The notes under the pieces are model-generated. The model was given only the letters and a program-made list of their open reading frames with translations, was not told the origin of the DNA and did not search any database. A stretch of 64,000 bases of DNA from Rhodothermales bacterium. Its GTDB lineage: Bacteria; Bacteroidota; Rhodothermia; Rhodothermales; JAHQVL01. Location of the stretch: contig JAWXAX010000302.1 in assembly GCA_034439735.1 (NCBI GenBank), positions 40,338 to 104,337 of the forward strand, read 5' to 3'. This document shows, piece after piece, positions 16,207 to 33,941 of this stretch; positions within the stretch are counted from its first letter, which is position 1; each line of letters begins with the position of its first letter. Position numbers and translations under genes: made by a program.

Positions 16207-16746
16207 ATGTCAGCTACGGACGCGCATTCGTTACGCCGCATCGGGCGGATCTTACGCGCGCACGGCGTCCTGGGGGAGCTGAAGGTATTGCCGTCGGTTG
16301 CGGATATCGAGGGTCTGGCGACACTCCCTCGGGTCTGGATCGGCGGAGCGCCGGATCAGGCAACGGCACACGCCGTGGAGTGCGTCCGCTTTCAGCATAA
16401 CGCGAAAGGCCGGCTCGTTCTCCTGCGAGTGGCCGGAGTCGTGGGCCGCGAGGCCGCGGAGGCGATGCGTGGTCGCGAGGTATTCGCGGCGGCGGCAGAC
16501 CTACCGGTATCCGATGGCGAAGCATACGATCGCGACCTGCTGGTCGGGCTCGAAGCCTTTGCCGACGGCGCGCCCATTGGCCGTATCCACGATGTGCTGG
16601 AAATGCCCGCGCATCACGTGCTCGTGATTGCGCGGGAAGGTCGGCCCGATGCCCTCGTGCCGGCTGTGCCAGCGTTCATTGAAACGATTGATCTTGCCGC
16701 CGGCCGTCTGGTCATCCGGCCCATCGAGGGCCTGTTGGAAGACTGA
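16207..16746 (+). CDS. rimM: 16S rRNA processing protein RimM
   Basis: [17 protein letters not shown]-terminal pattern, PRC-barrel-like C-terminus, conserved rpsP-rimM-trmD-rplS order. Confidence 0.85.
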
Positions 16747-16772
16747 GGCGAGCGCATACCGGGTTCCGATCC

Positions 16773-17471
16773 GTGCGAATCGATATCGTCACCGCACTGC
16801 CGGACATCGTCCGCGGTCCGCTCGAACACAGCATCATCCAACGCGCCCGCGCTGCCGGGATCGTGTCGATTGTTGTGCACGACATACGGGACTTCACGTT
16901 CGATAAGCATCGACAAGTGGACGATTACCCGTTCGGCGGAGGCGCCGGCATGGTGCTCAAGCCGGAGCCGATCTTCGCCTGCATCGAAGCGATCCAGGCG
17001 GAGGCGGAACAGCGCGGCGAACCGGTAGACGAGGTAGTGTACCTCACGCCGGATGGCGAAGTGTTCCAGCAAGCGATAGCCAACCAGCTCTCCTTGCGGC
17101 GCCATCTGATCCTGCTCGCCGGCCACTATAAAGGCGTCGATCAGCGTGTGCGCGATGCCCTCGTTACCCGCGAGATTTCGATCGGGGACTATGTGCTGAG
17201 CGGTGGTGAGCTGCCTGCCCTCGTCCTCGTCGATGCCCTCGTTCGGCTTGTGCCGGGGGTGCTCGGCGATGCGTCGTCGGCGCTAACCGATTCGCACCAG
17301 GACGGCCTCCTTGCGCCACCCGTCTACACCCGCCCCGCTTTGTATCGCGGGCTCGAGGTGCCGGACGTGTTGATGTCGGGAGATCACCGGGCTATCGATG
17401 CCTGGCGGGACGAACAGAGCCTCGCGCGGACGCGCGAGCGCCGGCCCGACATGCTCGACGCGGCGGATTGA
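16773..17471 (+). CDS. trmD: tRNA (guanine37-N1)-methyltransferase
   Basis: [20 protein letters not shown] and [30 protein letters not shown] motifs. Confidence 0.9.
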
Positions 17472-21192: not shown

Positions 21193-23861
21193 CCATGGAC
21201 AACCTGCTCTTCTCGCCGGCCTTCACCCGTGAGGCCTTCGTCGTGCTTTTCGACTACGCACTCAAGGGCGTGATCATTCTTTTGTTCGCCAACCTGCTCG
21301 TCTACCTGCTTCGGCCGGCCTCCGCGGCGATCCTGCATGCGATCTGGACCGTAGCGATGGTGCTGCTGATCCTGGTGCCGATCGCGCCGCGACTCGTGCC
21401 GGGTCTGGACCTGGCGATCCTCGACCCGAGGGCCCTGCCGGGGGTGAGTGGCGCCACGGGATTGGCTGGTGAAAATGCGCCCGAGGATGCGGTAGTTGCC
21501 TACTGGCCCTCGCAAGGCGACTCATATGGGGTATTGAACCGGAATGTGCAGGAGCAGGCTGCACTGGAAGAATCCATGGCCGCGGTGAGGGACAAACAAG
21601 GCTCGGGTGACGCATACATCGTCCGTTCGCCTGACGCCGGCTACCGGATCGAGCCGGCCGCGCCCATTGCTCCTTTGCTTCGAACGCAGACGGCCATGCC
21701 TGTTCTGGACGCTGTGTTGTTGTTTGGGATGACGGCGGGATGGTCGGACTGGATGCTGCTCGTCTGGCTGGGCGGCGTGGTGTTTCTGATAGGATGGATG
21801 ATCTCGGGCGTCGTGGGGCTGTTCTGGCTGCGCCAGCGGTCGACTCATCTGATGGGGGAGGACTGGCAGGATCTCATCGATGAAATCTCCGAACGATATG
21901 CGTTGCGTCGGCCAGTAGCCCTCATGACGAGTGGCCGCATCGCGATGCCGATGACGTGGGGGGTGTGGCGTCCGGTGGTGATGTTGCCCGTCGACGCGGA
22001 GGACTGGCCGGCGGAGCGGCGGCGCTCCGTGCTCCTACACGAAGTGGCCCACATCGCGCGCTGGGATTACCTGACCCAGAGCCTCGCCTATGCCGTGTGC
22101 GCCGTAAACTGGTTCAACCCGCTGGTGTGGCGCGCCGCCGGCCAGATGCGACTCGAACAGGAAAAGGCGTGTGACGACCGGGTGTTGTCCCATGGCATGA
22201 AGGCGACCGCGTACGCCTCGCACCTGATGGACCTCGCCCGGACCGTGCGCTCCGCGTTTGTATCGCCATCCGCTGCGATGTCGATGGCGCGTCCGTCTCA
22301 GCTTGAAGGCCGGCTGATCGCCATCCTGGACGATCGGCACGACCGGCGGACCCCCTCGTGGCGCCGGCTTGTGGGGACGGCGGCGGCATCTTTCGTGCTC
22401 ATTCTACCGCTTGCGGCGATGCAGGTCTGGCGCCCAACGGCAGAGACCGTTTCCGCGAAACCGGCCCGTTTCAGCATGCTCGCGCCGGCGCCCGAGTATG
22501 AAAAGATCGCGGAGGACGCTTCCCTTGCCGCGTTGGCAGAACTCGAGGCCGTACATCTCAACCTGGAGGCGTTGGAGATTGCGAACCAGGAGCTGTACTT
22601 CACGCTGGATATCTCCACGGACACCACCGATGAGCAGCGAAAAGCCGCGCGCCGTAAGGCGATTGTCGCGCTACGCAGCGCGCTGGACGACGAAAACGAG
22701 GCTATCCGGCGCGACGCCGTGATCGCGCTGTATCAGATCGGCGGGGCCGATGCCGTCGATGCCTTTGTTGAGGTCGTCCGCAACGACCCGAGTGCGGACG
22801 TACGCCGGCAGGCCGTCATGGCGCTTAGTCGGGCCAGGGGCGAAACCGCGGAGCAGGGTCTGATCGCCGCGTTGTCCGACGCCGACCGGGATGTCCGGCG
22901 CGACGCGCTGATCGCGCTGAGCAGCCGGGAGGTGACCGAAGCGACGCCGGCATTTGAGCAGGCGTTAAAGGATGAGGACGCCATGATCCGCGCGACGGCC
23001 GTACGGGCCATGGCCGCCCATCCGGCGGAAGGGACCGTCGATGCGCTGGCGGATGTGCTCGCCAACGATGCCTCGCGCGACGTCCGTATCGCGGCGGTGC
23101 AGGGGCTCGGGATGATGCGCGATATCCGCGCGGTGGACGCGCTTTCCGCCGCACTGGAGGATGAGGATGTGGATGTGCGCCGGCTGGCAGCCCAGGCGCT
23201 CAGCCAGCTCAACTATGGGGGGGATGAGCAGGTTCGGCGTACGGTGGGTCGGGCCTGGGGCGGCGTCCTGGCGCCCGGTCAGATTCGGAGTGGGGCAGGT
23301 CCGGGGACGATTTTTTCATCGGCGGAGGCGCCGGCCGTCTGGGGGTATAGCCGGGGCTTGAACGACAGCGCGCGGGTGATGGCGTATTCGGATGATCTGG
23401 CGCGTGTTGGATCGCAGGCACGGGACAATGAGCATATTCAGTTGTTGAATGAGAAGGCATTATGGGAGAACGAACGCAAGCGGGAGGCCATCGAACAAGA
23501 AATGGAAGCATTGCGTGGATTCATAGAGCGCAGTCAGACGGAGGGCGGGGGAGAACAGGATAGTCGCGAACTTATGAAACGCCTGGAGGCGCTGCAGATT
23601 GAACGGGATCTTTCGGATTCTGCACTTGAACACCGACTCCGAATATCTCGATGGCCGCAAGCCGGCGAGACCTTCACTGCAGCCCCCGGTGCTTCGCAAG
23701 AGGAATTGAAGGAAGCACGGATCAGCGAGATGATCCGGTTCATCGAAGAGCAGCCGTCGGGCCCTCGGTGCAAGGAGTATGTTAAGCTGCTCCAGGACAT
23801 GAAGGACAGTAACCCGCGCGCGAAGATCGCCGTGGAGACCCTCAGCTGCGAGAAAGAATGA
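21189..23861 (+). CDS. BlaR1-like M56 membrane metallopeptidase with C-terminal HEAT-repeat and coiled-coil region
   Basis: M56 zinc motif LLHEVAHIARWD after several TM helices. The C-terminal half has at least five DxDVRRxAxxAL HEAT/PBS-lyase-like repeats. No penicillin-binding transpeptidase-like sensor recognisable. Confidence 0.8.
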   Translation: MTMDNLLFSPAFTREAFVVLFDYALKGVIILLFANLLVYLLRPASAAILHAIWTVAMVLLILVPIAPRLVPGLDLAILDPRALPGVSGATGLAGENAPEDAVVAYWPSQGDSYGVLNRNVQEQAALEESMAAVRDKQGSGDAYIVRSPDAGYRIEPAAPIAPLLRTQTAMPVLDAVLLFGMTAGWSDWMLLVWLGGVVFLIGWMISGVVGLFWLRQRSTHLMGEDWQDLIDEISERYALRRPVALMTSGRIAMPMTWGVWRPVVMLPVDAEDWPAERRRSVLLHEVAHIARWDYLTQSLAYAVCAVNWFNPLVWRAAGQMRLEQEKACDDRVLSHGMKATAYASHLMDLARTVRSAFVSPSAAMSMARPSQLEGRLIAILDDRHDRRTPSWRRLVGTAAASFVLILPLAAMQVWRPTAETVSAKPARFSMLAPAPEYEKIAEDASLAALAELEAVHLNLEALEIANQELYFTLDISTDTTDEQRKAARRKAIVALRSALDDENEAIRRDAVIALYQIGGADAVDAFVEVVRNDPSADVRRQAVMALSRARGETAEQGLIAALSDADRDVRRDALIALSSREVTEATPAFEQALKDEDAMIRATAVRAMAAHPAEGTVDALADVLANDASRDVRIAAVQGLGMMRDIRAVDALSAALEDEDVDVRRLAAQALSQLNYGGDEQVRRTVGRAWGGVLAPGQIRSGAGPGTIFSSAEAPAVWGYSRGLNDSARVMAYSDDLARVGSQARDNEHIQLLNEKALWENERKREAIEQEMEALRGFIERSQTEGGGEQDSRELMKRLEALQIERDLSDSALEHRLRISRWPQAGETFTAAPGASQEELKEARISEMIRFIEEQPSGPRCKEYVKLLQDMKDSNPRAKIAVETLSCEKE

Positions 23862-24207
23862 CGTCGTAGTACGCGAGGGCGGCCGGCGTCGCGACGAGGC
23901 GGGTGCCGTTGAGATCGACTTCGAAGAGGGAGGCCTGGCGGGTTTGCCGGGCCTTCCATGTTAACATTCGCTCCACGACAACCTGGACGGCGCCGTCATT
24001 GGAGCGTTCCGCCAGCGCCGGCCCGTCGAGCCCCAGCTCGTCCTGCATGAACACGAGCCAGCTGCCGTCGGACAGGACGGCGCGCACATGACCGTCCTGC
24101 ACATACAGCTGGCGGATGGCGCGGGCCATCACAGGATAGATGTGATGATGCAGCCGGGCTGCCGGCACGGGCCGGCCGCGGGCTTGCAGCGAAGGAAGGC
24201 GAGGCAT
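23842..24207 (-). CDS. Hypothetical protein (last gene of the envelope operon)
   Basis: 121-aa ORF starting 14 nt after the receiver-gene stop on the same strand. No motif recognised. Its 3-prime end overlaps the convergent blaR1-like gene by 20 nt. Confidence 0.4.
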   Translation of the reverse strand: MPRLPSLQARGRPVPAARLHHHIYPVMARAIRQLYVQDGHVRAVLSDGSWLVFMQDELGLDGPALAERSNDGAVQVVVERMLTWKARQTRQASLFEVDLNGTRLVATPAALAYYDVILSRS

Positions 24208-24220
24208 GAGGACACGGGAG

Positions 24221-24604
24221 TCACGCGGCGAGGAGTTGGGTAATGGTTTCGAGTAGCTGTTTCTGGGTGAAAGGTTTGCTCACATAGCCGTCGAACCCCA
24301 TGTTGAGGAACCGGTTACGATCTCCGGGCATGGCGTAGGCAGTAAGCGCGATGATCGGAATGGATGCGTAATGACCCTTCTGGCGGATCATGTTGAGCAG
24401 ATCGATGCCTGTACGCTCTTCGCCGAGGTGAATATCAACCAGGAGCAAGTCAAACGTATGCTGCGTTGTCAATTGCAGCGCCTCATCGATTTTGCACGCG
24501 ATGTCGATTTTGTATGAAGCCTGCAGAAAATACCGCAACAGGATCTGTGTGTCGGCATTGTCTTCGACCACCAGAATATGGGTAGCTGCCGGCTTTATAC
24601 TCAT
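24221..24604 (-). CDS. Single-domain CheY-like response regulator receiver
   Basis: ILVVEDNADTQILL, phospho-acceptor context FDLLLVDIHL, conserved ALTAY and K in GFDGYVSKPF. No output domain. Confidence 0.85.
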   Translation of the reverse strand: MSIKPAATHILVVEDNADTQILLRYFLQASYKIDIACKIDEALQLTTQHTFDLLLVDIHLGEERTGIDLLNMIRQKGHYASIPIIALTAYAMPGDRNRFLNMGFDGYVSKPFTQKQLLETITQLLAA

Positions 24605-24668: not shown

Positions 24669-26750
24669 CTATGAATCGTGCTTCCAGCGTAGCTGCATGC
24701 GCACCGTGCGGAACCGAGGGCCCTCGAACAGATCCGGCCCGCTGCCGGCCCGACGATCCACCGGGTACGACGCACGCTCGAACTTGACTTCAAACGTCAA
24801 GGCAGGGCCTGCCCGGTAGGACATCAGAATATAAAACCGATCGCCATTCCCCGCATACTGTGCAACGATAAAGCGTGAATATACATCGTCCTCATAGGCA
24901 AAAGCCGTCGCGTCCGCACCTGTGGATGCGAACGAGGCAAACCGGGTGGTGAGGCGAAGCCACGTCGCCGGCCTCCAGGTAATGTCGCTATACAGCAGGA
25001 CCCCGCGCTGGCGCTTGCCAGGCCTGTCCGCCAGGACCCAGTCCGCCCGCATACGAAGGAGCAACGCGGGGCTATGCGTGTAGCTGGCGTGGAGGCGGAA
25101 GGTGCGTCTCCGTGTGGCATATAACCCATCGACCACGCGACCGGCTGCATCCACATACATGCCGCCGGTTTCAGTCTGTTGTTGGCGGTATTGGAGGTAG
25201 CCGCCGATGTACGGCGCCGGCTCGACATTGAGGCGGATACTGGCTTCACGGCCCTGACCGGGGAGGGGGAGGCCGGTGCGTGGCCACGGGTGCCCGAAAC
25301 GGTCGATATACCCGGCCATAGACCACCGCCGCGACGGGGTGATGCGTATCGCGAGGTAGACGCCCTCCTCGTTCTGAGGGATGGACCCCGCGGCGCGAAA
25401 GGCATTGCCATACAATGGGGCGAACGCCGGCTGGAAGCGCCGCGCCACGAACAGCGCTTCGAGGCGCGGATCGGGCACGATCTGGCCTCCGACAATCAGC
25501 CCATCGCCACCTCCGGCCGTGCGGCCATACTCGGCGAACAGGTGGGCGGATCGGGAGCCATACCTCGCGAAGGCGCTGGAGGCGGACTGACGCCTGCCCC
25601 GGAAGTCGAAGGCCTCATAGAGGGCGTCGCCAGCAGCGATGGGCATGTCGAACTGGCCGAGGACATGCACGATCCCGACGCTCCACGAACGGGCGGCGGC
25701 AAGCAGGCGGAACCCGGCCGTATTCGAACGCAGAACGCCGCGCCGGGCGCGTTCGGTGGCCGTCCTGTGGAGGCCGGTCCGGTTGATGGCCCGTACCTCG
25801 GCCAGTGGGCCCGTATCGGTCAGGACGGTGTCGATCGAGGCGGCGAGTGCGCGTCGGGAAGCAAATACCAGGAGTTGGGTCCCACGTAGCGGAGCCACTT
25901 CCACGGCCGCGCCACGGAAGAAGGCGCTTTCGCCGGCACTACCGTACGGGCTGAGCCCGCTGCCCGAAACAAGCGGATCGAGGGTAGGCGCGGCGCCGGC
26001 GATCGCGCGATATGGCGCCCCGAGGAGCAATCCGTGCCCGGCCTGCGCCAGGTAATCCCCCACGACCAGGCGACGAAGCCAGCGGCGGCCGGACCACGAA
26101 ATGCTGCCAGCAACGTGATCCATCCCCAGGACTCCCCGGTTGGGCTCCCAGCTCAGTGCCTCGCCGGCGTCTTTCTCCATTGCAAACCGAACCGAGGCGC
26201 CGCCGCGATCGAGGCGGAGGCGCGTATACGCCGCCAGCGGCGACCCCGAAAAAGCCGGCCCGATGGAATCGCCGGGATCGGAACGGAAGCCGCTGCGGAG
26301 GTCGAGGTCGCGGCTGAACCGTTGCAGGATTTCGATGCGCGTGCGGGGCGGGCTCCTGTCAGCTCCTGGTGTCTCCGGGTCAGTGAAAGCCACGAAAGGG
26401 GCCAGCCGGCGGGCGGTATCGGCATCGAAGCCGGGGAGTCCCGCCAGAGCGTCGAGGGACGCGAGAGCAGGGGATAGCGAGAGTCGCGCGGTGAGCGCCG
26501 CTTTTTGTATGGCGCTCAGGTAGGGCAGGCGGTCGACGTCGCGCACGGCGGCGGCATCCAGTAAAAGGGGCTGTTCGAGAAGCGTCTGCCAGAAGTGGAG
26601 GAGAGCTTCCGCATCCGATTCGTCCGTCGGGAGGGATTCCAGCAGGTCGTCCCATCCGGCGAATAACGACTCGGGCGTCTGTGCCCTGGCCGACGTTGCG
26701 GACATTCCGCAGAGCAGGATCAGGCAGGCAACAAGTAGTGACGAAGGCAT
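24669..26750 (-). CDS. Helix-hairpin-helix (ComEA-like) domain protein fused to a large predicted outer-membrane beta-barrel-like region
   Basis: Signal peptide. Two HhH-like segments (VRDVDRLPYLSAIQKAALTARL; LDALAGLPGFDADTARRLAPFV). The remaining ~550 aa have an alternating Tyr/Arg/Gly-rich strand-like pattern. Confidence 0.6.
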   Translation of the reverse strand: MPSSLLVACLILLCGMSATSARAQTPESLFAGWDDLLESLPTDESDAEALLHFWQTLLEQPLLLDAAAVRDVDRLPYLSAIQKAALTARLSLSPALASLDALAGLPGFDADTARRLAPFVAFTDPETPGADRSPPRTRIEILQRFSRDLDLRSGFRSDPGDSIGPAFSGSPLAAYTRLRLDRGGASVRFAMEKDAGEALSWEPNRGVLGMDHVAGSISWSGRRWLRRLVVGDYLAQAGHGLLLGAPYRAIAGAAPTLDPLVSGSGLSPYGSAGESAFFRGAAVEVAPLRGTQLLVFASRRALAASIDTVLTDTGPLAEVRAINRTGLHRTATERARRGVLRSNTAGFRLLAAARSWSVGIVHVLGQFDMPIAAGDALYEAFDFRGRRQSASSAFARYGSRSAHLFAEYGRTAGGGDGLIVGGQIVPDPRLEALFVARRFQPAFAPLYGNAFRAAGSIPQNEEGVYLAIRITPSRRWSMAGYIDRFGHPWPRTGLPLPGQGREASIRLNVEPAPYIGGYLQYRQQQTETGGMYVDAAGRVVDGLYATRRRTFRLHASYTHSPALLLRMRADWVLADRPGKRQRGVLLYSDITWRPATWLRLTTRFASFASTGADATAFAYEDDVYSRFIVAQYAGNGDRFYILMSYRAGPALTFEVKFERASYPVDRRAGSGPDLFEGPRFRTVRMQLRWKHDS

Positions 26751-26804: not shown

Positions 26805-27074
26805 TCAGGCGTACCGTCTGTCGCGCATATTTTTTGCGAGATAAAAGGCGAGGGCTCCGAAAAACGAGACGAACCAGACGACGAAGGTCGCGCCGAAGAG
26901 GAATCCCGGCCGCCCCGATGGAAGGGCGAGCAGCACCTCGAATCGGTGCGCGTACCAGGCGCCGATGGCGTAAAACAGCCAGTAGAGCGACATCAAGGCG
27001 GCGAAGGCGCCGGCTTTACGAGAGATCGCGTTGGATGTGGGCGTCATAAGCGAGGCCAGGAGGCGGAGGGTCAT
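26805..27074 (-). CDS. Small integral membrane protein, unknown function
   Basis: 89-aa ORF with three hydrophobic helices, lying between two same-strand envelope genes. Confidence 0.5.
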   Translation of the reverse strand: MTLRLLASLMTPTSNAISRKAGAFAALMSLYWLFYAIGAWYAHRFEVLLALPSGRPGFLFGATFVVWFVSFFGALAFYLAKNMRDRRYA

Positions 27075-27182: not shown

Positions 27183-28031
27183 CTACAATGCGCCACGTCC
27201 ATGGACGTATATGGCCACGGCCGGCGTCCACCCCAGCGCATAGTGCCGTTCGGCGGTGGCTTCGGCGTGAATCCACGTGGTTCGGACGGCCACGCCCGCC
27301 GATAGCCGCCATGGTTCCCCGGTCGCGCCGGCGCGCAGCGCCAGCGCCCGCACAGGACGCCACTCGAGGCCGGCATGGAGCGACGTCGACGCGCGGCCGC
27401 TCCGTCGGAGGGCGAGGAGGAGTGCGGTCTCGGGTGTCGGCTGGTACAGCGCGCCCAGGGCAAACCGCCGGGACAGGGGCTCGCCCGCAGCCCATCGGGG
27501 GCCATTGACGTTCTCCGCCGCCGCGCCCAGGCGGAGCGTGGGGACGACATCCACCTGCCAACCGGCGGAGAGTCCAATGGCCGTGGCGTTGCCGTAGTCC
27601 TCGATCGTAACCCGGTGCAGGGCGATACGGACGCCCATGGCGATGGGGCGATGGGTGCCGGGGAACAGGGGTCGCGCCACGCCGGCCAGCCAGCTGGATT
27701 CGCGGTAGGCCGCGTCGCCGAAACTGGCGGCGCCGGCCGCGACGACCGTCCGCCCAAGCGGCACCGCGACACGCGCGGCGCCTTCGCGTAGCTCGGGAAG
27801 ACCAAACCCCTCCGCGGCAAAGAAGCCCGCCGTCGCCGAGCGAATGGCCGCCCAGGACGCCGGGTTGGCGATCCCCCAGAGGTCGCCGCCGAGAGCCGGC
27901 GTGGCCCCGCCCAGAGCGATGGCGGCCGCGCCTTCACGCGCCGGTTGGGCGCCGGCGGCCCGCATGGGAAGGAGCAGAAGAAGGGCGATCACGCCGCGCA
28001 GTGCGGCGGAAGCTGGAGGCGAAGTGTGCAT
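27183..28031 (-). CDS. Putative outer-membrane beta-barrel, PorV/PorQ-like
   Basis: Signal peptide. AAAIALGGATPALGGDLWGIANPASWAAI resembles the N-terminal GG...NPA motif of PorV/PorQ/FadL-like barrels. Alternating strand pattern. Weak, by eye. Confidence 0.45.
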   Translation of the reverse strand: MHTSPPASAALRGVIALLLLLPMRAAGAQPAREGAAAIALGGATPALGGDLWGIANPASWAAIRSATAGFFAAEGFGLPELREGAARVAVPLGRTVVAAGAASFGDAAYRESSWLAGVARPLFPGTHRPIAMGVRIALHRVTIEDYGNATAIGLSAGWQVDVVPTLRLGAAAENVNGPRWAAGEPLSRRFALGALYQPTPETALLLALRRSGRASTSLHAGLEWRPVRALALRAGATGEPWRLSAGVAVRTTWIHAEATAERHYALGWTPAVAIYVHGRGAL

Positions 28032-28188
28032 CGGATACGATAGAGGCTGATGGACCGTTTCTCCTACTAGACGTATGTGCGTGCTCCCGCATACCGTCCG
28101 ACACAGCCAGTGCCCTCGCCGGCTGGAAACAGCACCCGCACTCGCTCGTAACAGCCTCGATTCGGAACCGTCAGTCTATCCTAACCGC

Positions 28189-29130
28189 ATGCCGAACCCA
28201 ACCCGACGCACGTCTCGCTTTTCTTCTCGCCTTATCCGCTTCCTGCTTCTGGGGTTGGGGGTTATGGTAGGGGCGCCGGCTACCGCGCCGACGGCCCACG
28301 CACAGGAATTTAACTGCCAGGTCACGGTCTCCATCGCCCAACTCACGGGCTCCGAGTTTACGTTCTTGCAGGAGCTTGGCGAACAGATCGAGCTCTATAT
28401 GAACGAGCGGTCTTTCACGCAGGACCGGTACCTGGATGTCGAGCGCATCGACTGCCTCATGCAGGTGATCTTCGAGGAAGCGGTCACCCTCACCAGCTTT
28501 CAGGCCCGGATCGTGTTATCCAGCCGGCGACCCATTTACGGTGTGCCGCAGGTCTCGACGGTCCTTCAAATCAGCGATACCGGCTGGCAGTTTAACTACG
28601 CCCAGGGGTCGCCGCTGGTATTCGATCTCGAGAAGTTCGATCCCCTGACGTCGGTGCTCAACTTCTACGCCTACATCATGCTGGGCTACGACTACGACAC
28701 ATTTGCGGAATTTGGAGGCTCCGCCCACTTCGAGCGGGCGCGGCGCATCGCGGCGCTGGCGGAGTCCCAGAACGCGCTCGGTTGGGTCGATCTGGGTGAC
28801 AACCGGGGCCGGAAAGATCTGATCGAGCAGGTGCTGGATCCCCGCTTTAAGCCACTCCGGAAGGTCTATTTCGACTACCACTACGCCGGCCTTGACGCCT
28901 TCGTCTCGGAGAATGAGGCGGCGCGAGGCAGTATTCTCGCGGCGATTGAGAGCCTGGACGCTCTTTATGATGAGATGTCGCGATCGTATGTGTTCGACAT
29001 CTTTTTCTCAAGCAAAGCCGAGGAGATCGCCGCGGTGTTTGACGACTCTCCCCTGAGTTCACAGGCGTACGATGTGCTCCGCCGTGTCGACCCCGCGAAC
29101 CTGTCGAAATACGATAAGCTGGTGAACTGA
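28189..29130 (+). CDS. DUF4835 family protein (T9SS PorD-like)
   Basis: ATG 28189. After the signal peptide, AQEFNCQVTVSIAQLTGSEFTFLQELGEQIELYMNERSFT ... ERIDCLMQVIF follows the DUF4835 pattern over the full length. Confidence 0.75.
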   Translation: MPNPTRRTSRFSSRLIRFLLLGLGVMVGAPATAPTAHAQEFNCQVTVSIAQLTGSEFTFLQELGEQIELYMNERSFTQDRYLDVERIDCLMQVIFEEAVTLTSFQARIVLSSRRPIYGVPQVSTVLQISDTGWQFNYAQGSPLVFDLEKFDPLTSVLNFYAYIMLGYDYDTFAEFGGSAHFERARRIAALAESQNALGWVDLGDNRGRKDLIEQVLDPRFKPLRKVYFDYHYAGLDAFVSENEAARGSILAAIESLDALYDEMSRSYVFDIFFSSKAEEIAAVFDDSPLSSQAYDVLRRVDPANLSKYDKLVN

Positions 29131-29335: not shown

Positions 29336-29444
29336 ATGAGCGAAAATGATATGGCGCTGCACCCCTGGAGGTTCCGATGCCGCTTCGGCGGCGCGGTGGC
29401 CGGCCGGCAATGATGAACTATTTTCCCACCCAGACTACGACGTT

Positions 29445-31622
29445 ATGATCACTGGTATCGAGGCCCGCGGAAAGAGCCTGCTGGGCCTTCTGCTCTTGAG
29501 CGGTACGTTGCTTTCCGCTCAGGCGCAGCCCGAGCAGAACGACCCCTTGAAAGCGGGGCGGTTCGACAATGGGAAGATGTGGACGTTCGACTATCCGCCG
29601 GCCGACTACTTCGAGGAGGCCTATGGTTTTTCGCCGGATGAGGCCTGGTTCGATCGGGCGCGTCTGGGGGCGCTTCGCATCCCGGGCTGCACGGCGTCGT
29701 TCGTTAGTTCGACGGGTCTGGTGCTCACCAACCACCATTGCGGCCGCGGTCCGGTGGCTCAGGTGACGCAGGCCGGCGAAAACCTTTTGGACGATGGCTT
29801 TTATGCCCCCTCGCTGGCCGAAGAGCGGATCGTTCCCGGTTTCTATGCGGATCAGATGATCGCCATCGCCGATGTGACCGACGAGGTTTTCGCGGCCCAG
29901 CAGGGCATGGAGACCGACGCGGAGCGGGCGGCGGCGCGCGATGAGGCTGTACAGCGCATCCAGGACCGCCTCACGACGGAAGCCGGCGGCGCCGAAGCCG
30001 GCATCGTGGTCGAGGTCACCCCCCTGTACCACGGAGGTCGCTACTCGGCCTACACCTTCCGCCGCTACCCGGATGTCCGCCTCGTGATGGCGCCGGAACT
30101 CCAGATGGGCTTTTTTGGCGGCGACGATGATAATTTCACCTTTCCCCGATACGCGCTCGACATGACTTTTTTCCGGGTGTACGACGACGCCGGCGAGCCG
30201 CTCGAAACGGAGCACTACTTCACCTGGAGCCTCGAAGGCGTGCAGCCGGGGCATCCGGTGTTCGTCATCGGCAACCCGGGTAGCACGAGCCGCCTCGAGA
30301 CTGTCGCCCAGCTTGACCTCCGCCGCGACGTGACGGACAAAAGCCTGCTCGCGTTTGTCTCCAGCCGCCTCGCCGCCCTCGAACGGTACCAGGAATCCCT
30401 GCCGCCGTCGCAACGTTCGGACGCGACGCGCAATCAGATCTTTTCGCTGCGGAATGCCCAGAAGGCGTATACCGGGCAGCAGGCCGCACTGGTCGATCCC
30501 GTGGTGGTCGCGCGTAAAAAAGATGCCGAGCGCGCGTTTATGGAGGCGATCCGGGCGGATGCCGCGTTGACCGCCACCTATGGGTCCGTGATTTCGGAGA
30601 TAGCCGAAACCCAGACGAGCTTCCGCGAGCTCGGCGCTGAATACGGCGCATTCTTCGGCCTCACCAGCGCCGCCTATTCTTCGGCGCTGATGCGGCGGGC
30701 GATAGCCGCCTACACCTACCTGGAACGCCGGGCAGCTGGCCAGCAAGGCGCGGCCCTCGACCCCCTTGAAACGCAGATCAACGGCATCGCCGATCAGCCC
30801 GAGGGGCTCGCCCGTGAACTGCTCGCGACCCGCCTGCACGATTTTTTGACGTACTTCGGAACGGAGGACACAGTGGTGCAAACTGCGCTCGCCGGCGCCT
30901 CGCCGGAGGACCGCGCCGCGGCGCTCCTCGCGTCGTCCGCCCTCGCCACCGCCGAGAAGACACAGCAGGCGATGGCAAATGAGACGCTCACGATGGAGGA
31001 TCCCGCGGTGATCCTGGTCGGCGCCTTCATCCAGCGATATCGTGACTTTCAGAGCGCCTCGGCCGGGCTCACCGGCCGGCAGAACGAACTAGCCAGCCAA
31101 CTCGGCCGGGCGCGCTTCGCGGTGTATGACACGGACGTTCCACCCGACGCCACGTTTTCGCTCCGCATCGCCGACGGGGTCGTCGCCGGCTACCCCTACA
31201 ACGGCACCTTTGCCTCGCCGTTCACCAGCTTCTACGGGTTGTACGATCACTATTATTCCTACGGAGCAGGCTCCGCGTGGGACCTGCCGGCGCGCTGGCT
31301 CAAGCCGCCGGCGACCTTCGATATGGGGGTACCCATGAACTTCGCCTCGACGAACGACATCATCGGCGGCAATTCCGGCTCTCCGGTCTTGAATCAGGAC
31401 CTCGAACTGGTGGGCCTCATCTTCGACGGCAACATCGAGAGCCTCGCCGGCGAGTTTATGTATCTCCCCGAGAAAAACCGCGCGGTGTCTGTTGATGCCC
31501 GCGGTATACTGGAGGCGCTGGATGAGATCTACGATGCGGATCGGATCGTCCTCGAACTCACGGAGGACGAACTCGTCCCTACCGAGGACGAGGCCGACCG
31601 TAGCCGCGGCAGCCAGCGCTGA
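29445..31622 (+). CDS. S46 family dipeptidyl-peptidase (DPP7/DPP11-like), paralog 1
   Basis: ATG 29445 with type I signal peptide. Catalytic His block GLVLTNHHCG and Ser block IIGGNSGSPVLNQDLELVGLIFDGN. Confidence 0.85.
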   Translation: MITGIEARGKSLLGLLLLSGTLLSAQAQPEQNDPLKAGRFDNGKMWTFDYPPADYFEEAYGFSPDEAWFDRARLGALRIPGCTASFVSSTGLVLTNHHCGRGPVAQVTQAGENLLDDGFYAPSLAEERIVPGFYADQMIAIADVTDEVFAAQQGMETDAERAAARDEAVQRIQDRLTTEAGGAEAGIVVEVTPLYHGGRYSAYTFRRYPDVRLVMAPELQMGFFGGDDDNFTFPRYALDMTFFRVYDDAGEPLETEHYFTWSLEGVQPGHPVFVIGNPGSTSRLETVAQLDLRRDVTDKSLLAFVSSRLAALERYQESLPPSQRSDATRNQIFSLRNAQKAYTGQQAALVDPVVVARKKDAERAFMEAIRADAALTATYGSVISEIAETQTSFRELGAEYGAFFGLTSAAYSSALMRRAIAAYTYLERRAAGQQGAALDPLETQINGIADQPEGLARELLATRLHDFLTYFGTEDTVVQTALAGASPEDRAAALLASSALATAEKTQQAMANETLTMEDPAVILVGAFIQRYRDFQSASAGLTGRQNELASQLGRARFAVYDTDVPPDATFSLRIADGVVAGYPYNGTFASPFTSFYGLYDHYYSYGAGSAWDLPARWLKPPATFDMGVPMNFASTNDIIGGNSGSPVLNQDLELVGLIFDGNIESLAGEFMYLPEKNRAVSVDARGILEALDEIYDADRIVLELTEDELVPTEDEADRSRGSQR

Positions 31623-31694: not shown

Positions 31695-33941
31695 ATGATT
31701 TTCATGACAGCATTCGCGCGCCCAGCACTCGTCGCCCTCGCCCTGGTTCTGATGACCGGCTGCGCCACGACGACCAGTGAGATGGCCGTCATCACCGAGC
31801 GCCCCCGGCCAGCCGCGCCCCCAACCGTCACGCCGGCGGCCGACGTGACGACGCCCGCCCCTGAAGAGACCATCCAGCCCGGCCGGTTTGATGGCGGTAA
31901 GATGTGGACGTTCGACAACCCGCCGCTCGAGTACTTCCGCGAAGCGTACGGTCTCGAACTGAATGATCAGTGGTTTGAAGTCGCCAGCCGGAGCGCTCTG
32001 CGTTTCGGCGAGAGCTGCTCAGCCTCGTTTGTCTCCCGTCGCGGCCTTGTGATGACCAACCACCACTGCGCCCGTGAGAGCATCACCAAAGTAAGCGGCG
32101 CCGGCGAGTCCTTGCTCGATGACGGGTTCTACGCGACCTCCCTCGACGCCGAACGGAAAGTGGAGGACCTGTATGTCGATCAGCTGCTGTTTATCGCGGA
32201 CGTGACGGATAAGCTTACCGATGACATCCCGGACTATCAAAACGACGAAGAGGAGGCCGACGCGCGCGAGCGCGCCATCGAAGCACTCGAAGAGCGGATG
32301 ACCCGCGACGCGCGCGGTCAGGATACCACGCATATCGTGCAGATCGTCCCGCTGTACAACGGCGGTAAGTATTCGGCCTACACGTTTAAGCGCTACAGCG
32401 ACGTGCGCCTCGTGGTCGCGCCTGAGCTGCTGATGGGCAAGTTCGGCGGCGATCCGGACAACTTCACGTATCCGCGGTATTCGCTGGACATGACGTTCTT
32501 CCGGGTGTATGGCCCCGACGGGGCGCCCATAGAAACCCGCTATTTCTTCCCGTGGAGCACCGCCGGCGTGCAGGAAGGTGACCCCGTTTTTGTGGTCGGT
32601 AACCCTGGCTCCACCAGCCGGCTCAATACCATCAGCCAGCTGGAGTATGAGCGCGACTTCGACCTCCCGCAGCAGCTCGAAGTGCTGACCGCGTTCGCCG
32701 GCATCATGAAGACTTACCTCGATACCCAGCCACCCGGTGACGCGAACGGGGACATACGGAACGATTATTACTCGCTCTCCAACTCGATCAAGGCGATGGA
32801 GGGCCAGCTTGCCGGTCTCCGCGATCCCGCGCTTATGGCGCGCAAACGCGCTGCCGAGCAGAACCTCCGCCGCGCCATCGACGCCGACCCGAAGCTGAAG
32901 GCCGACTACGGGAACGTGCTAGATGACCTCCTTGCCGTGCAGGCTTCTAAGAAGGCAACGGCCCGCCAGGCCGGCGCGCTCACCTTTTATGGCTCCGCGC
33001 TAGGGTCGCGCATCCTCACTCGCGCACTCTACGGCTATGCCTACACGCTCCTCAAACAACGCGGCGCTACGCAAACAACCCTCGACGAGCTGCTCAAGGA
33101 CGCCAACGAACTGAAAGATTACCCGCCTGAAGTGGAACGCAGCCTCATCGTGGCCCGCATCCGTCAAATGGAAAGATACCTCGGCCGCACGGACCCCACC
33201 ATTCGTGGCATGCTCCAGGGCCTCACGCCCGAAGCGTTGGCGGATACCCTGGTCGCCACCTCCGCCCTCGTCGATTCCGCCCGATTCGTCGTCCTGCTGG
33301 ATGGCACCTACCTCTCCAGCAAAGACGCGTCGGTGCCCGTCATCAACGCCCTCGCGCCCCTGTATTTTACGCTCGGCCAGCAGATCGGAAGCTTTGGCGA
33401 CCGCGAGGGCAATCTCAACGCCGAACTCTCCCGCGCTCGCTTCGCCGTCGACGGCTTCACCAGCCCGCCGGACGCGACCTTCTCGCTGCGCCTCACCGAT
33501 GGCGTCGTACAGGGTTATGCCTACAACGGAACAGTCGCACCGTACAAGACGACTTTTTATGGTGTTTACGATCACTATGTGACCTACGGCCCGAACTCCG
33601 AGTGGGATCTGCCCGAAGCCTGGAAGCGTGTGCCTCCTGGCCTCGACCTGTCTACCCCGCTCAATCTGGTTTCCACCAACGACATCACCGGCGGTAACTC
33701 TGGCTCCCCGCTGCTCAACAAGAATCTAGAAGTGGTGGGATTGATCTTCGACGGCAATATCGAATCGCTGCCCAACGAGTATGTTTATACCGACAAAGCC
33801 GCCCGCGCCATCTCGGTTGACGCTCGCGGGATTCTGGAAGCGCTGGATGAGATGTACGACGCCGATCGGATCGTCCTCGAGCTGACCGCCGGCCAGATGA
33901 CGGCGACAGAGCAGGAAGCGGATGCGGTGAGAGGGGAATGA
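31695..33941 (+). CDS. S46 family dipeptidyl-peptidase, paralog 2 (lipoprotein signal)
   Basis: LVLMTGC lipobox. GLVMTNHHCA and ITGGNSGSPLLNKNLEVVGLIFDGN. Collinear with paralog 1. Confidence 0.85.
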   Translation: MIFMTAFARPALVALALVLMTGCATTTSEMAVITERPRPAAPPTVTPAADVTTPAPEETIQPGRFDGGKMWTFDNPPLEYFREAYGLELNDQWFEVASRSALRFGESCSASFVSRRGLVMTNHHCARESITKVSGAGESLLDDGFYATSLDAERKVEDLYVDQLLFIADVTDKLTDDIPDYQNDEEEADARERAIEALEERMTRDARGQDTTHIVQIVPLYNGGKYSAYTFKRYSDVRLVVAPELLMGKFGGDPDNFTYPRYSLDMTFFRVYGPDGAPIETRYFFPWSTAGVQEGDPVFVVGNPGSTSRLNTISQLEYERDFDLPQQLEVLTAFAGIMKTYLDTQPPGDANGDIRNDYYSLSNSIKAMEGQLAGLRDPALMARKRAAEQNLRRAIDADPKLKADYGNVLDDLLAVQASKKATARQAGALTFYGSALGSRILTRALYGYAYTLLKQRGATQTTLDELLKDANELKDYPPEVERSLIVARIRQMERYLGRTDPTIRGMLQGLTPEALADTLVATSALVDSARFVVLLDGTYLSSKDASVPVINALAPLYFTLGQQIGSFGDREGNLNAELSRARFAVDGFTSPPDATFSLRLTDGVVQGYAYNGTVAPYKTTFYGVYDHYVTYGPNSEWDLPEAWKRVPPGLDLSTPLNLVSTNDITGGNSGSPLLNKNLEVVGLIFDGNIESLPNEYVYTDKAARAISVDARGILEALDEMYDADRIVLELTAGQMTATEQEADAVRGE

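Follow-up and report, generated by a model that had tools for sequence, protein, structure and literature searches.

For Bacteroidota, it is an open question by what means DNA passes the outer membrane if type IV pilus and secretin are absent. In Bacteroidota and Rhodothermota, the route through a competence pilus and secretin is generally missing. For Porphyromonas gingivalis, in which T2SS, T4SS and pilus routes are absent, the outer-membrane step of uptake has been explicitly described as unknown (PMC11532111), and a screen in Riemerella yielded non-canonical candidates only (PMC8459023). A gene found in a 64,000-nucleotide stretch of DNA from a Rhodothermales bacterium (contig JAWXAX010000302.1, positions 40,338 to 104,337; hereafter the window) raises the question whether its product, in which helix-hairpin-helix (HhH) motifs precede a predicted outer-membrane barrel, could take part in this step. 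Capture of extracellular DNA (eDNA), DNA uptake and biofilm-matrix anchoring had all been suggested as roles in the original prediction for this gene.

Organization and distribution of the HhH-barrel protein

An NCBI protein of 100% identity from a Rhodothermales MAG, one homologue with 77% identity and relatives numbering in the thousands indicated that the HhH-barrel open reading frame (Table 1) is a real gene. Direct reading of its sequence placed cleavage of the signal peptide between MPSSLLVACLILLCGMSATSARA and QTP, and "AQ" at this position is the consensus in the alignment of the HhH-barrel family. In the shorter NCBI gene model (P0001), which starts at Met16, the signal peptide would be lost. 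The acidic segment that follows (residues 24-59) contains nine Asp/Glu and no Lys/Arg residues and, in an AlphaFold2 model based on a 40-sequence alignment (pLDDT 85.7, pTM 0.84), includes helices at residues 33-38 and 44-59. Four further helices in this model (residues 69-73, 80-92, 99-103, and 110-119) showed a double-HhH pattern; the HhH-like motifs reported earlier were at residues 72-89 and 101-119. C-terminal to the HhH domain, approximately 556 amino acids of beta structure were modelled as about 25-27 strands between residues 137 and 692, with ambiguity in both the count and the parity of the strands. Sequence and AlphaFold2 model together bore out the originally described architecture of a signal peptide, an acidic segment, two HhH motifs and some 550 amino acids of beta structure.

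The C-terminal region is predicted to form a large outer-membrane barrel. The protein combines a signal peptide, amphipathic strands, a barrel in the predicted structure and a hydrophobic C-terminal strand (family C-terminus ..QLRW.[FL]), as expected of outer-membrane beta-barrels. In its strands, hydrophobic and polar faces alternate, which differ by a mean of 1.95 Kyte-Doolittle units, and the lumen face of the barrel carries 29 positive and 19 negative charges. Foldseek searches with the model returned large outer-membrane barrels only, all with a probability of 1.0, and the top matches were MtrB (6r2q_B), TonB-dependent transporters, FimD, and AlgE, with TM-scores of only 0.3-0.4. The earlier claim of a C-terminal outer-membrane barrel therefore holds as a prediction. 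No Pfam or NCBIfam model matched the barrel domain of the window protein or of the 40 family members, in which the motifs EKDAGE, GDY..Q.GQGL, GLHRT..E, and QNE.G.Y and a YE.D region are conserved. Identity as a TonB-dependent transporter was rejected by the absence of Plug and TonB_dep_Rec domains from the window protein and the 40 members, and identity as a secretin (PilQ/GspD) by the lack of a Secretin Pfam match and of secretins among the top fold matches. Usher, MtrB, or LptD membership was likewise rejected, as profile support was absent.

A genome scan was seeded with a 13-sequence subset, the divergence among all 40 aligned sequences being too great for this purpose. Homology searches indicated that the family is widespread in Bacteroidota and Rhodothermota, with at least 590 genome loci and 6,208 clusters, and in the genome scan it seemed to be confined to T9SS-bearing phyla. 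Family proteins are approximately 650-745 amino acids long and the full profile was covered by all of the best 150 representatives, which therefore share the full-length architecture. Twenty invariant residues, mostly polar or glycine, were found in the family alignment across 22-77% identity. With 693 amino acids, including the barrel, the window protein does not conform to the small, essentially HhH-only format of whole ComEA proteins, to which an oligomerisation domain may be added. When the Bacteroidales branch was searched for homologues from named model organisms, all matches were generically named MAG proteins. In the databases and literature searched, neither a curated model nor a paper describing the full-length protein was found, which agrees with the earlier statement that no experimental characterisation of this architecture was known. 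A separate HHH_3 protein of about 300 amino acids also occurs in Bacteroidales (locus L005).

Table 1. Features of the HhH-barrel locus in the window.
Feature	Position	Strand	Description and basis
121-aa conserved hypothetical protein	23842..24207	-	Last gene of the apparent operon
Single-domain response regulator (REC)	24221..24604	-	Immediately downstream of the HhH-barrel gene; PF00072, E = 4e-23
HhH-barrel gene	24669..26750	-	693 aa, ATG start; signal peptide, acidic helix, ComEA-type (HhH)2 domain by family profiles, predicted large outer-membrane beta-barrel
Predicted large beta-barrel domain, residues 137-693	24672..26342	-	About 24-26 membrane strands; DSSP, invariant columns, Foldseek
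Putative diverged ComEA-type double HhH domain, residues 60-122	26385..26573	-	In-register alignment with profile-matching members; four modelled helices
Acidic, mostly helical N-terminal segment, residues 24-59	26574..26681	-	Composition and AlphaFold2 helices
Signal peptide, residues 1-23	26682..26750	-	Read from the sequence; cleavage expected after ARA, before Gln24
89-aa small membrane protein	26805..27074	-	Between partner and barrel genes; lineage-specific
Partner gene, 282 aa, predicted compact 14-strand PorV/FadL-family outer-membrane barrel	27183..28031	-	Adjacency, AlphaFold2, Foldseek, profile
porD, T9SS accessory gene	28075..29130	+	Divergently transcribed; NCBIfam PorD equivalog, E = 6e-78, DUF4835

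Relation of the HhH domain to ComEA

Profile searches gave different results for the window copy and for the family, by which the earlier assignment of an HhH region was only partly upheld: failure of this region in such searches, named in the original prediction as grounds for refutation, occurred for the single window sequence but not for the family. Searches of Pfam with the window protein did not return HHH_3 and yielded T2SSK_1st as the sole match (E = 0.17), while no match was found in NCBIfam or, by sequence, in the PDB at E <= 10. Across the family, HHH_3 (PF12836) was matched by 31 of the 40 members (best E = 6e-18), the comEA model TIGR01259 by 20 and TIGR00426 by 12. A profile of the family matched solved ComEA structures (8dss, E = 9e-12; 2duy, E = 2.5e-7) as well as the HhH domains of Tex and EEPD1, and weak matches in the family-level searches included GspK and PsbU, whose HhH folds do not bind DNA. 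ComEA models were by far the strongest matches. These profile matches assign the N-terminal domain to the ComEA type at the level of the family, and the window copy is assigned to HhH because it aligns in register with family members that match the profiles.

Canonical Gly-hydrophobic-Gly motifs, through which DNA phosphates are contacted, were not found in the hairpins of the window copy; in each of hairpins 1 and 2, another residue takes the place of the second glycine. Hairpin 1 reads LPYLS in the window copy and LP.LS or L.LLS in the family, and hairpin 2 reads LPGFD, where the family has PGFD or PGWD with a conserved Asp. Since Gly-x-Gly hairpins are mostly replaced throughout the HhH-barrel family, DNA binding by the HhH domain should not be assumed. 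In many family members the domain is net acidic. Genuine ComEA domains are, however, also near neutral, so that net charge was uninformative and the family domains were judged by hairpin composition instead. The HhH domain of the window copy is diverged and degenerate. Its degenerate state and the replaced hairpin glycines, like the PorV-like partner barrel and the ComEC link described below, had not been part of the original prediction.

Genes adjoining the HhH-barrel gene

In 68 of the 83 loci compared, the HhH-barrel gene has an adjacent partner gene of the same orientation, with a stop/start overlap reported for the pair. Of the assessable loci, 87%, the window among them, have a 14-strand PorV homologue immediately upstream. 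Five of the remaining loci are truncated upstream. The AlphaFold2 model of the window partner (pLDDT 85.3) contains 14 strands, and its fold matches in Foldseek included PorV (6h3i_F, TMq 0.70), OmpG, and FadL. In addition, a profile of 50 partners matched the PorV sequence (E = 7.7e-10) with alignment of the N-terminal G.G...D.WS...NPA motif. Profile and model thus place the partner in the PorV/FadL-like family of 14-strand barrels. The window partner itself had no match in Pfam. Identity with PorV proper, the T9SS shuttle, was rejected: PF19572 was matched by only one of the 50 partners (E = 0.004), and the partner is about 130 amino acids shorter than PorV and is paired with the HhH barrel rather than with SprA.

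ComEC was the commonest neighbour in operon position. In 11 Sphingobacteriales and Chitinophagales loci, comEC starts between 3 nucleotides before and 45 nucleotides past the end of the barrel gene; the identity of ComEC at these loci was supported by PF03772 (E = 3.6e-57) and DUF4131. In locus L087 the order is barrel-comEC-recQ, with overlapping ORFs, and in L088 it is comEC-barrel, with a gap of 1 nucleotide. In all, distant lineages have comEC beside the barrel gene in three different orders, and the comEC-linked family members share a pairwise identity of only 24-40%. The classical arrangement is a comEA-comEC operon, and ComEC proteins with DUF4131 and Competence domains are near-universal in Bacteroidetes (PMC6299819). 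The three gene orders therefore indicate that the barrel gene occupies the place of comEA in such operons. This adjacency is a minority arrangement (11 of 83 loci, plus 2 of 8 extra contexts); comEC is absent from the 64-kb window, and the Bacteroidaceae and Prevotellaceae copies of the HhH-barrel gene stand alone. In eight loci, recJ is located downstream in convergent orientation. The conserved PorV-like partner upstream of the HhH-barrel gene and the comEC adjacency are new observations.

In the window, the partner, the 89-amino-acid membrane protein, the barrel, the response regulator, and the 121-amino-acid protein are encoded in an apparent Rhodothermales-specific operon. The closest relative, locus L093, encodes the 89-amino-acid protein with 88% identity and the same length and position, and no counterpart was present in the other loci examined. 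Four Rhodothermota loci (L001, L002, L007, and L093) have the response regulator gene in the equivalent place, and the 121-amino-acid protein, which had no match in Pfam, is 93% identical in L093. Adjacency of porD was limited to four of the 83 loci, all from Rhodothermota and including the window, and porD is probably a neighbour rather than a part of the HhH-barrel system. Other neighbours in operon position (PurE, MerR, an S46 peptidase, SusC-like proteins, an acyltransferase, and a POT transporter) lacked a common theme, and CarboxypepD_reg barrels adjoin the family gene in a few loci.

Candidate roles and comparison with known systems

We rate as about evenly balanced the chances that the HhH barrel is an outer-membrane component of DNA uptake, acting as a tethered ComEA-type receptor that would hand DNA to ComEC. 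In the proposed mechanism, double-stranded DNA would pass the outer membrane at or through the large barrel of about 24-26 strands, after which the HhH domain, presumed periplasmic because the N-termini of outer-membrane barrels normally sit in the periplasm, would capture it as a built-in ComEA-like receptor or ratchet. The DNA would then be handed on to the inner-membrane channel ComEC, and the outer-membrane step of uptake would thereby be supplied, for transformation or nutrition, in Bacteroidota and Rhodothermota. The HhH barrel and its PorV-like partner probably form a two-barrel complex in the outer membrane, as SprA-PorV and BamA-BamP suggest by analogy. Only tentatively do we propose that the two barrels constitute an unrecognised outer-membrane DNA translocon, free of pilus and secretin, in which double-stranded DNA would pass through the barrel of about 26 strands and be ratcheted to ComEC by the covalently tethered ComEA-type domain. 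Such a translocon would serve as a general route, for transformation and/or the use of DNA as food, in Bacteroidota and Rhodothermota, gut Bacteroidaceae and oral pathogens included. In P. gingivalis, a KEGG assignment as ComEA and a very strong E-value to COG1555 suggest that PGN_0421, annotated as ComEA, may be a short canonical ComEA rather than a member of the HhH-barrel family.

Homology of the partner to PorV is also what would be expected of a translocon or biogenesis factor that has no connection with DNA, for instance in T9SS or in the handling of cargo or lipids, with the HhH domain as a protein-interaction or plug module similar to those of GspK and PsbU. Known PorV-like barrels pair with SprA and with Bacteroidota BamA (fold matches 9n2d_B and 9hiv_F), and such a role would fit the apparent confinement of the family to T9SS-bearing phyla, the divergent porD in the window and three other Rhodothermota loci, the lost hairpin glycines, the acidity of many HhH domains, and the weak GspK and PsbU matches. 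We nevertheless regard it as unlikely: beyond porD, present in so few of the 83 loci, no T9SS gene recurs beside the partner-barrel pair, the HhH-barrel protein has no T9SS C-terminal domain, the abutting of comEC in three gene orders would not be accounted for, and ComEA models clearly lead among the domain matches. A T9SS role as the main reading was set aside, PorD adjacency being limited to four Rhodothermota loci. That the protein is a general large porin or a structural protein of the outer membrane, with a vestigial HhH domain or one serving as a periplasmic tether and with comEC adjacency as inherited synteny without function, is distinctly improbable. Strict conservation of the architecture in all of the best 150 representatives, the invariant, mostly polar or glycine residues and the persistence of comEC adjacency through gene-order changes between lineages only about 25% identical all argue against it, even though the window HhH domain fails the profiles, most loci have housekeeping neighbours, and the fold matches are generic at the TM-scores given above. 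Under this porin reading, loss of HhH function may already have occurred in the lineage of the window.

The predicted topology leaves the side of the HhH domain ambiguous, and a domain outside the cell, displayed on the barrel or threaded through it, could capture or anchor eDNA, for a biofilm or for nuclease-based scavenging, independently of ComEC. The ComEA-type domain would suit such surface DNA handling, and other loci are documented to serve the utilisation of DNA in Bacteroidales (PMC12478041). Nuclease or SusCD-type genes were, however, not consistently adjacent in the loci examined, and the recurrent DNA-related partner gene encodes the inner-membrane importer ComEC. With the normally periplasmic position of barrel N-termini also against it, surface DNA handling is highly improbable. 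Among the originally suggested roles, DNA uptake thus gained support from the abutting of comEC in three gene orders, whereas surface eDNA capture and biofilm-matrix anchoring did not.

For bacteria without a competence pilus, the HhH barrel is a testable candidate for the missing outer-membrane uptake step, and a concrete gene pair and a defined 70-residue domain are now available for deletion and DNA-binding studies. If the proposed uptake role is correct, the HhH barrel and its partner would represent a new class of DNA conduit in the outer membrane, with consequences for horizontal gene transfer among Bacteroidota of the gut and mouth and for development of genetic tools. The theme of a large barrel with a PorV-like barrel would, moreover, reach past T9SS and BAM. 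Should an uptake role be refuted, the two barrels would still be a very widespread, uncharacterised outer-membrane complex in which the HhH fold has been repurposed.

Several known systems resemble the HhH barrel in part. A transposon screen in Riemerella anatipestifer identified as competence genes RA0C_RS04915/04920, encoding a CarboxypepD_reg barrel and a lipoprotein, and RA0C_RS02645, encoding an HhH protein (PMC8459023). As in the HhH-barrel proposal, an HhH protein and an outer-membrane barrel are implicated there in pilus-independent transformation of a member of the Bacteroidota (PMC8459023). In contrast to the HhH barrel, the Riemerella HhH protein has about 300 amino acids, with HhH at residues 236-301, and the barrel is a separate protein of the TonB-receptor type; the HhH-barrel family was not among the finds of this non-saturating screen of 3,000 mutants (PMC8459023). 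The role proposed for the HhH barrel, transfer of double-stranded DNA across the outer membrane ahead of ComEA/ComEC, is that of the PilQ secretin of the type IV competence pilus. Unlike PilQ, the HhH barrel is predicted to be a single-chain beta-barrel rather than a multimeric secretin and has no sequence or fold relationship to it, and no pilus genes were found near the HhH-barrel loci examined.

The best structural neighbours of the barrel are large monomeric barrels that enclose or pass macromolecules, namely 26-strand barrels of the MtrB/LptD class and 22-strand TonB-dependent transporters. Similarity to these is limited to TM-scores of 0.3-0.4 and approximately 9-10% identity and, unlike them, the HhH barrel lacks a Plug, TonB box, OstA, cytochrome partner, and Pfam match. 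With SprA-PorV and BamA-BamP, which occur in the same phyla, it shares the pairing of a large barrel with a 14-strand barrel of the PorV family. It differs from SprA (36 strands, about 2,400 amino acids) and from BamA in having about 26 strands, 693 amino acids, and an unrelated sequence, and SprA was absent from its top 50 fold matches in Foldseek. The partner is likewise far more compact than PorV (about 255 amino acids in mature form versus about 390), and no T9SS genes are consistently linked to the pair.

In contrast to ComEA, which is small and either soluble or anchored in the inner membrane, the HhH-barrel protein carries its HhH domain at the N-terminus of an outer-membrane barrel of about 560 amino acids; its Gly-x-Gly hairpins are largely replaced, and neither the ComEA nor the HHH_3 model is matched by the window copy. 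With ComEA/ComE (PF12836, TIGR01259; 8dss, 2duy), it shares a homologous double HhH domain at the family level and a gene position beside comEC, as in classical comEA-comEC operons, and the presumed periplasmic location of this domain would be compatible with a role as a DNA ratchet.

Architecture and distribution of the HhH-barrel family

The protein encoded by the HhH-barrel gene had originally been predicted to comprise a signal peptide, an acidic segment, two helix-hairpin-helix (HhH) motifs and a beta-strand-like region. All these parts were present, since the ORF, signal peptide, acidic segment, motifs and structural model agreed. The 693-aa version begins with a canonical signal peptide, MPSSLLVACLILLCGMSATSARA, which ends in ARA and is followed by QTP; the AQ at the cleavage site is the family consensus at that point. 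In NCBI, the identical protein of a Rhodothermales MAG is named 'hypothetical protein' and modelled from Met16 (678 aa), losing the signal peptide. Because the 693-aa ORF restores this peptide, the public record is probably truncated at its N-terminus. Residues 24-59 include nine acidic and no basic residues, and the two motifs occupy residues 72-89 and 101-119. A confident AlphaFold2 model (pLDDT 85.7, pTM 0.84), built from a 40-sequence alignment, predicted four short helices within residues 69-119, followed by approximately 25-27 strands spanning residues 137-692.

Consistent with the proposed outer-membrane-like domain, the C-terminal region was predicted to form a large barrel. In a Foldseek search of the model against the PDB, matches at probability 1.0 were exclusively large outer-membrane barrels, including MtrB (6r2q_B, 26 strands), many TonB-dependent transporters, the ushers FimD and PapC, and AlgE, all at TM 0.3-0.4 and approximately 10% identity. 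Hydrophobic and polar faces alternate along the strands, the polar face being modestly basic (+29/-19). Neither Plug, TonB, Secretin nor any other Pfam or NCBIfam model matched the barrel in the window protein and 40 family members. The family alignment, at 22-77% identity, contained 20 invariant residues, within EKDAGE, GLHRT..E, QNE and YE.D motifs.

Assignment of the HhH region as ComEA-type held at the family level but not for the window copy alone, which yielded only T2SSK_1st (E = 0.17) in Pfam and no match in NCBIfam or in a PDB sequence search. The family is well defined (650-745 aa), and its members matched PF12836 HHH_3 (31 of 40; best E = 6e-18), TIGR01259 'comEA protein' (20 of 40) and TIGR00426 (12 of 40). 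The family profile matched Tex and EEPD1 in addition to solved ComEA structures (8dss, E = 9e-12; 2duy, E = 2.5e-7). In the alignment, the window HhH residues were in register with ComEA-matching members, which identifies the domain, at the level of sequence, as a diverged ComEA-type (HhH)2 domain.

Scanning a single genome from each species confirmed at least 590 loci, the best 80 of which come from Rhodothermota (Salinibacter, Salinivenus) and every major order of Bacteroidota. When 1.84 billion representatives were searched exhaustively with the profile, 6,208 clusters reached E <= 1e-30, and the best 150 all covered its full length (664-744 aa). Two members on short MAG contigs were labelled Halioglobus (Gammaproteobacteria; locus L067) and Massilibacillus (Firmicutes; protein P0025); these are probably mis-binned Bacteroidota DNA and not family presence beyond the FCB group.

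The PorV-like partner and the window operon

Directly upstream of the barrel gene, 68 of 83 loci carried a same-strand gene of approximately 275 aa, whose stop typically overlaps the barrel-gene start. Five of the 15 partner-less loci were truncated upstream, giving a partner rate of 87% of assessable loci. The other ten had sufficient upstream DNA (L050, L061, L084 and L085 from Spirosoma; L025, L022, L028, L031, L067, L005), and in Bacteroidaceae and Prevotellaceae (L090-L092) the barrel gene stands alone; in such genomes the partner may be encoded elsewhere or be dispensable. The window partner was modelled by AlphaFold2 as a 14-strand barrel (pLDDT 85.3). Its top TM match was PorV within the SprA translocon (6h3i_F, TMq 0.70), followed by OmpG, FadL and the PorV-like subunits found in BAM complexes of Bacteroidota. 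The PorV sequence was matched by a profile built from 50 partners (E = 7.7e-10), which aligned the N-terminal ARAaGlG...D.WS...NPA segment. However, the partner is much more compact than PorV, and the partner family falls short of the Pfam PorV model, which only one of the 50 matched.

Features of the window around the HhH-barrel gene
Feature	Position	Strand	Remark
BlaR1-type M56 peptidase sensor with long HEAT-repeat C-terminal region, 890 aa	21189-23861	+	converges on the operon
121-aa protein	23842-24207	-	no Pfam match; 93% identity in L093
Single-domain response regulator (REC)	24221-24604	-	3' of barrel gene
HhH-barrel gene	24669-26750	-	693-aa ORF, ATG start
Part left out by NCBI	26706-26750	-	within HhH-barrel gene
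89-aa predicted membrane protein	26805-27074	-	in unusual 433-nt partner-barrel gap
PorV-like partner	27183-28031	-	upstream of barrel gene
porD, T9SS accessory gene	28075-29130	+	NCBIfam equivalog, E = 6e-78; divergent from partner
S46 (DPP7/DPP11-like) peptidase genes, two in tandem	29346-31622, 31695-33941	+	beside porD
FG-GAP, CARDB, Ig-like protein, 1,059 aa	36729-39908	+	C-terminal CHU_C type IX secretion signal

The window operon runs from the partner through the 89-aa membrane protein, the barrel gene and REC to the 121-aa protein. In L093, the closest relative of the window locus, the 89-aa protein occupies the same place (620-889) at 88% identity, compared with 77% for the barrel itself; no counterpart was found at other loci. 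The M56/HEAT-repeat gene is present in L093 as well. A REC gene also lies downstream in Rhodothermota loci L001, L002, L007 and L093, a recurrence confined to that phylum that hints at lineage-specific regulation. The porD-partner arrangement is kept in Salinibacter, Salinivenus and another Rhodothermales contig, and in none of the Bacteroidota loci. The 1,059-aa protein is a T9SS cargo with a CHU_C signal, confirming that the window organism uses T9SS. In Hymenobacter (L012, 6488-8851), an S46 peptidase lies just 5' of the partner-barrel pair. The wider window surroundings are housekeeping genes, and no comEC was found within the 64 kb.

Linkage to comEC and possible role in DNA uptake

Across the family, ComEC (PF03772, E = 3.6e-57, plus DUF4131) was the commonest operon-position neighbour. 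The order partner-barrel-comEC, with comEC starting -3 to +45 nt past the barrel gene, occurred in 11 loci: seven from Pedobacter and one each from Arcticibacter, Desertivirga, a Sphingobacteriales MAG and Flavihumibacter, which is chitinophagal. Overlapping ORFs in the order barrel-comEC-recQ, lacking the partner, occurred in L087, and in L088, from a 60% GC lineage, comEC lies upstream of the barrel gene with a 1-nt gap. Family proteins across these arrangements shared just 24-40% identity, indicating that the adjacency outlasted rearrangement in distant lineages. Nearly all Bacteroidetes have a ComEC of the DUF4131+Competence type, and operons joining comEA to comEC are the classical arrangement (PMC6299819), so the HhH-barrel gene holds the comEA position.

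A convergent recJ lies downstream of the barrel gene in eight Bacteroidales and Marinilabiliales loci (L014, L034, L036, L040, L046, L051, L055, L005), directly abutting it in three. The remaining recurrent neighbours shared no theme. Further observations included recA beside porD (L001), endonuclease III and dnaX flanking the pair (L003, L089) and HU 3' of it (L088).

The best-supported reading, given about an even chance, is a two-barrel outer-membrane module in which ComEC and the tethered ComEA-type domain act together to take up DNA. The originally proposed roles were thus supported in part, the operon link to ComEC sharpening them towards uptake and making surface handling of eDNA by the HhH barrel less likely. 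Canonical Gly-x-Gly hairpins are mostly substituted family-wide (by LP.LS or L.LLS in the first hairpin and by PGFD or PGWD in the second), the HhH region is net acidic in many members, and HhH searches gave weak matches to GspK and PsbU, whose HhH folds bind no DNA. The main rival, a PorV-partnered translocon that has no DNA role and a repurposed HhH fold, is considered unlikely; surface eDNA handling and a generic porin whose HhH domain is vestigial are less likely still. Judged from sequence, DNA binding by the family HhH domain is plausible.

As the original prediction had supposed, no description of this architecture was found in the literature searched. The outer-membrane step of DNA uptake in P. 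gingivalis has been stated as unknown (PMC11532111). Competence work on that species showed that a 'ComEA', PGN_0421, with COG1555 at residues 94-165, is essential; this protein may be either a short ComEA or an HhH-barrel family member. A non-saturating transposon screen in Riemerella implicated proteins other than this family (PMC8459023). The transformation-essential HhH protein of approximately 300 aa in Riemerella is resembled by a separate 295-aa HHH_3 protein (16287-17174, -) approximately 6 kb from the family gene in L005, a Bacteroidales genome; bacteria such as this one may thus have both free and barrel-tethered ComEA-type domains. In four loci of Chitinophagaceae (L042, 12184-15453; L016; L052; L082), the family gene adjoins a SusC-like CarboxypepD_reg barrel with Plug; in L086 (1972-4341), its neighbour is a 789-aa CarboxypepD_reg barrel in which Plug was not found. 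The Riemerella competence gene RA0C_RS04915 encodes a CarboxypepD_reg barrel too, and such genes are abundant, so this adjacency could be chance. The parts of the module are known (ComEA domain, outer-membrane barrel, PorV-like partner), and the architecture combining them is a new variant. If the uptake role is real, the module would represent a novel type of conduit for DNA across the outer membrane.
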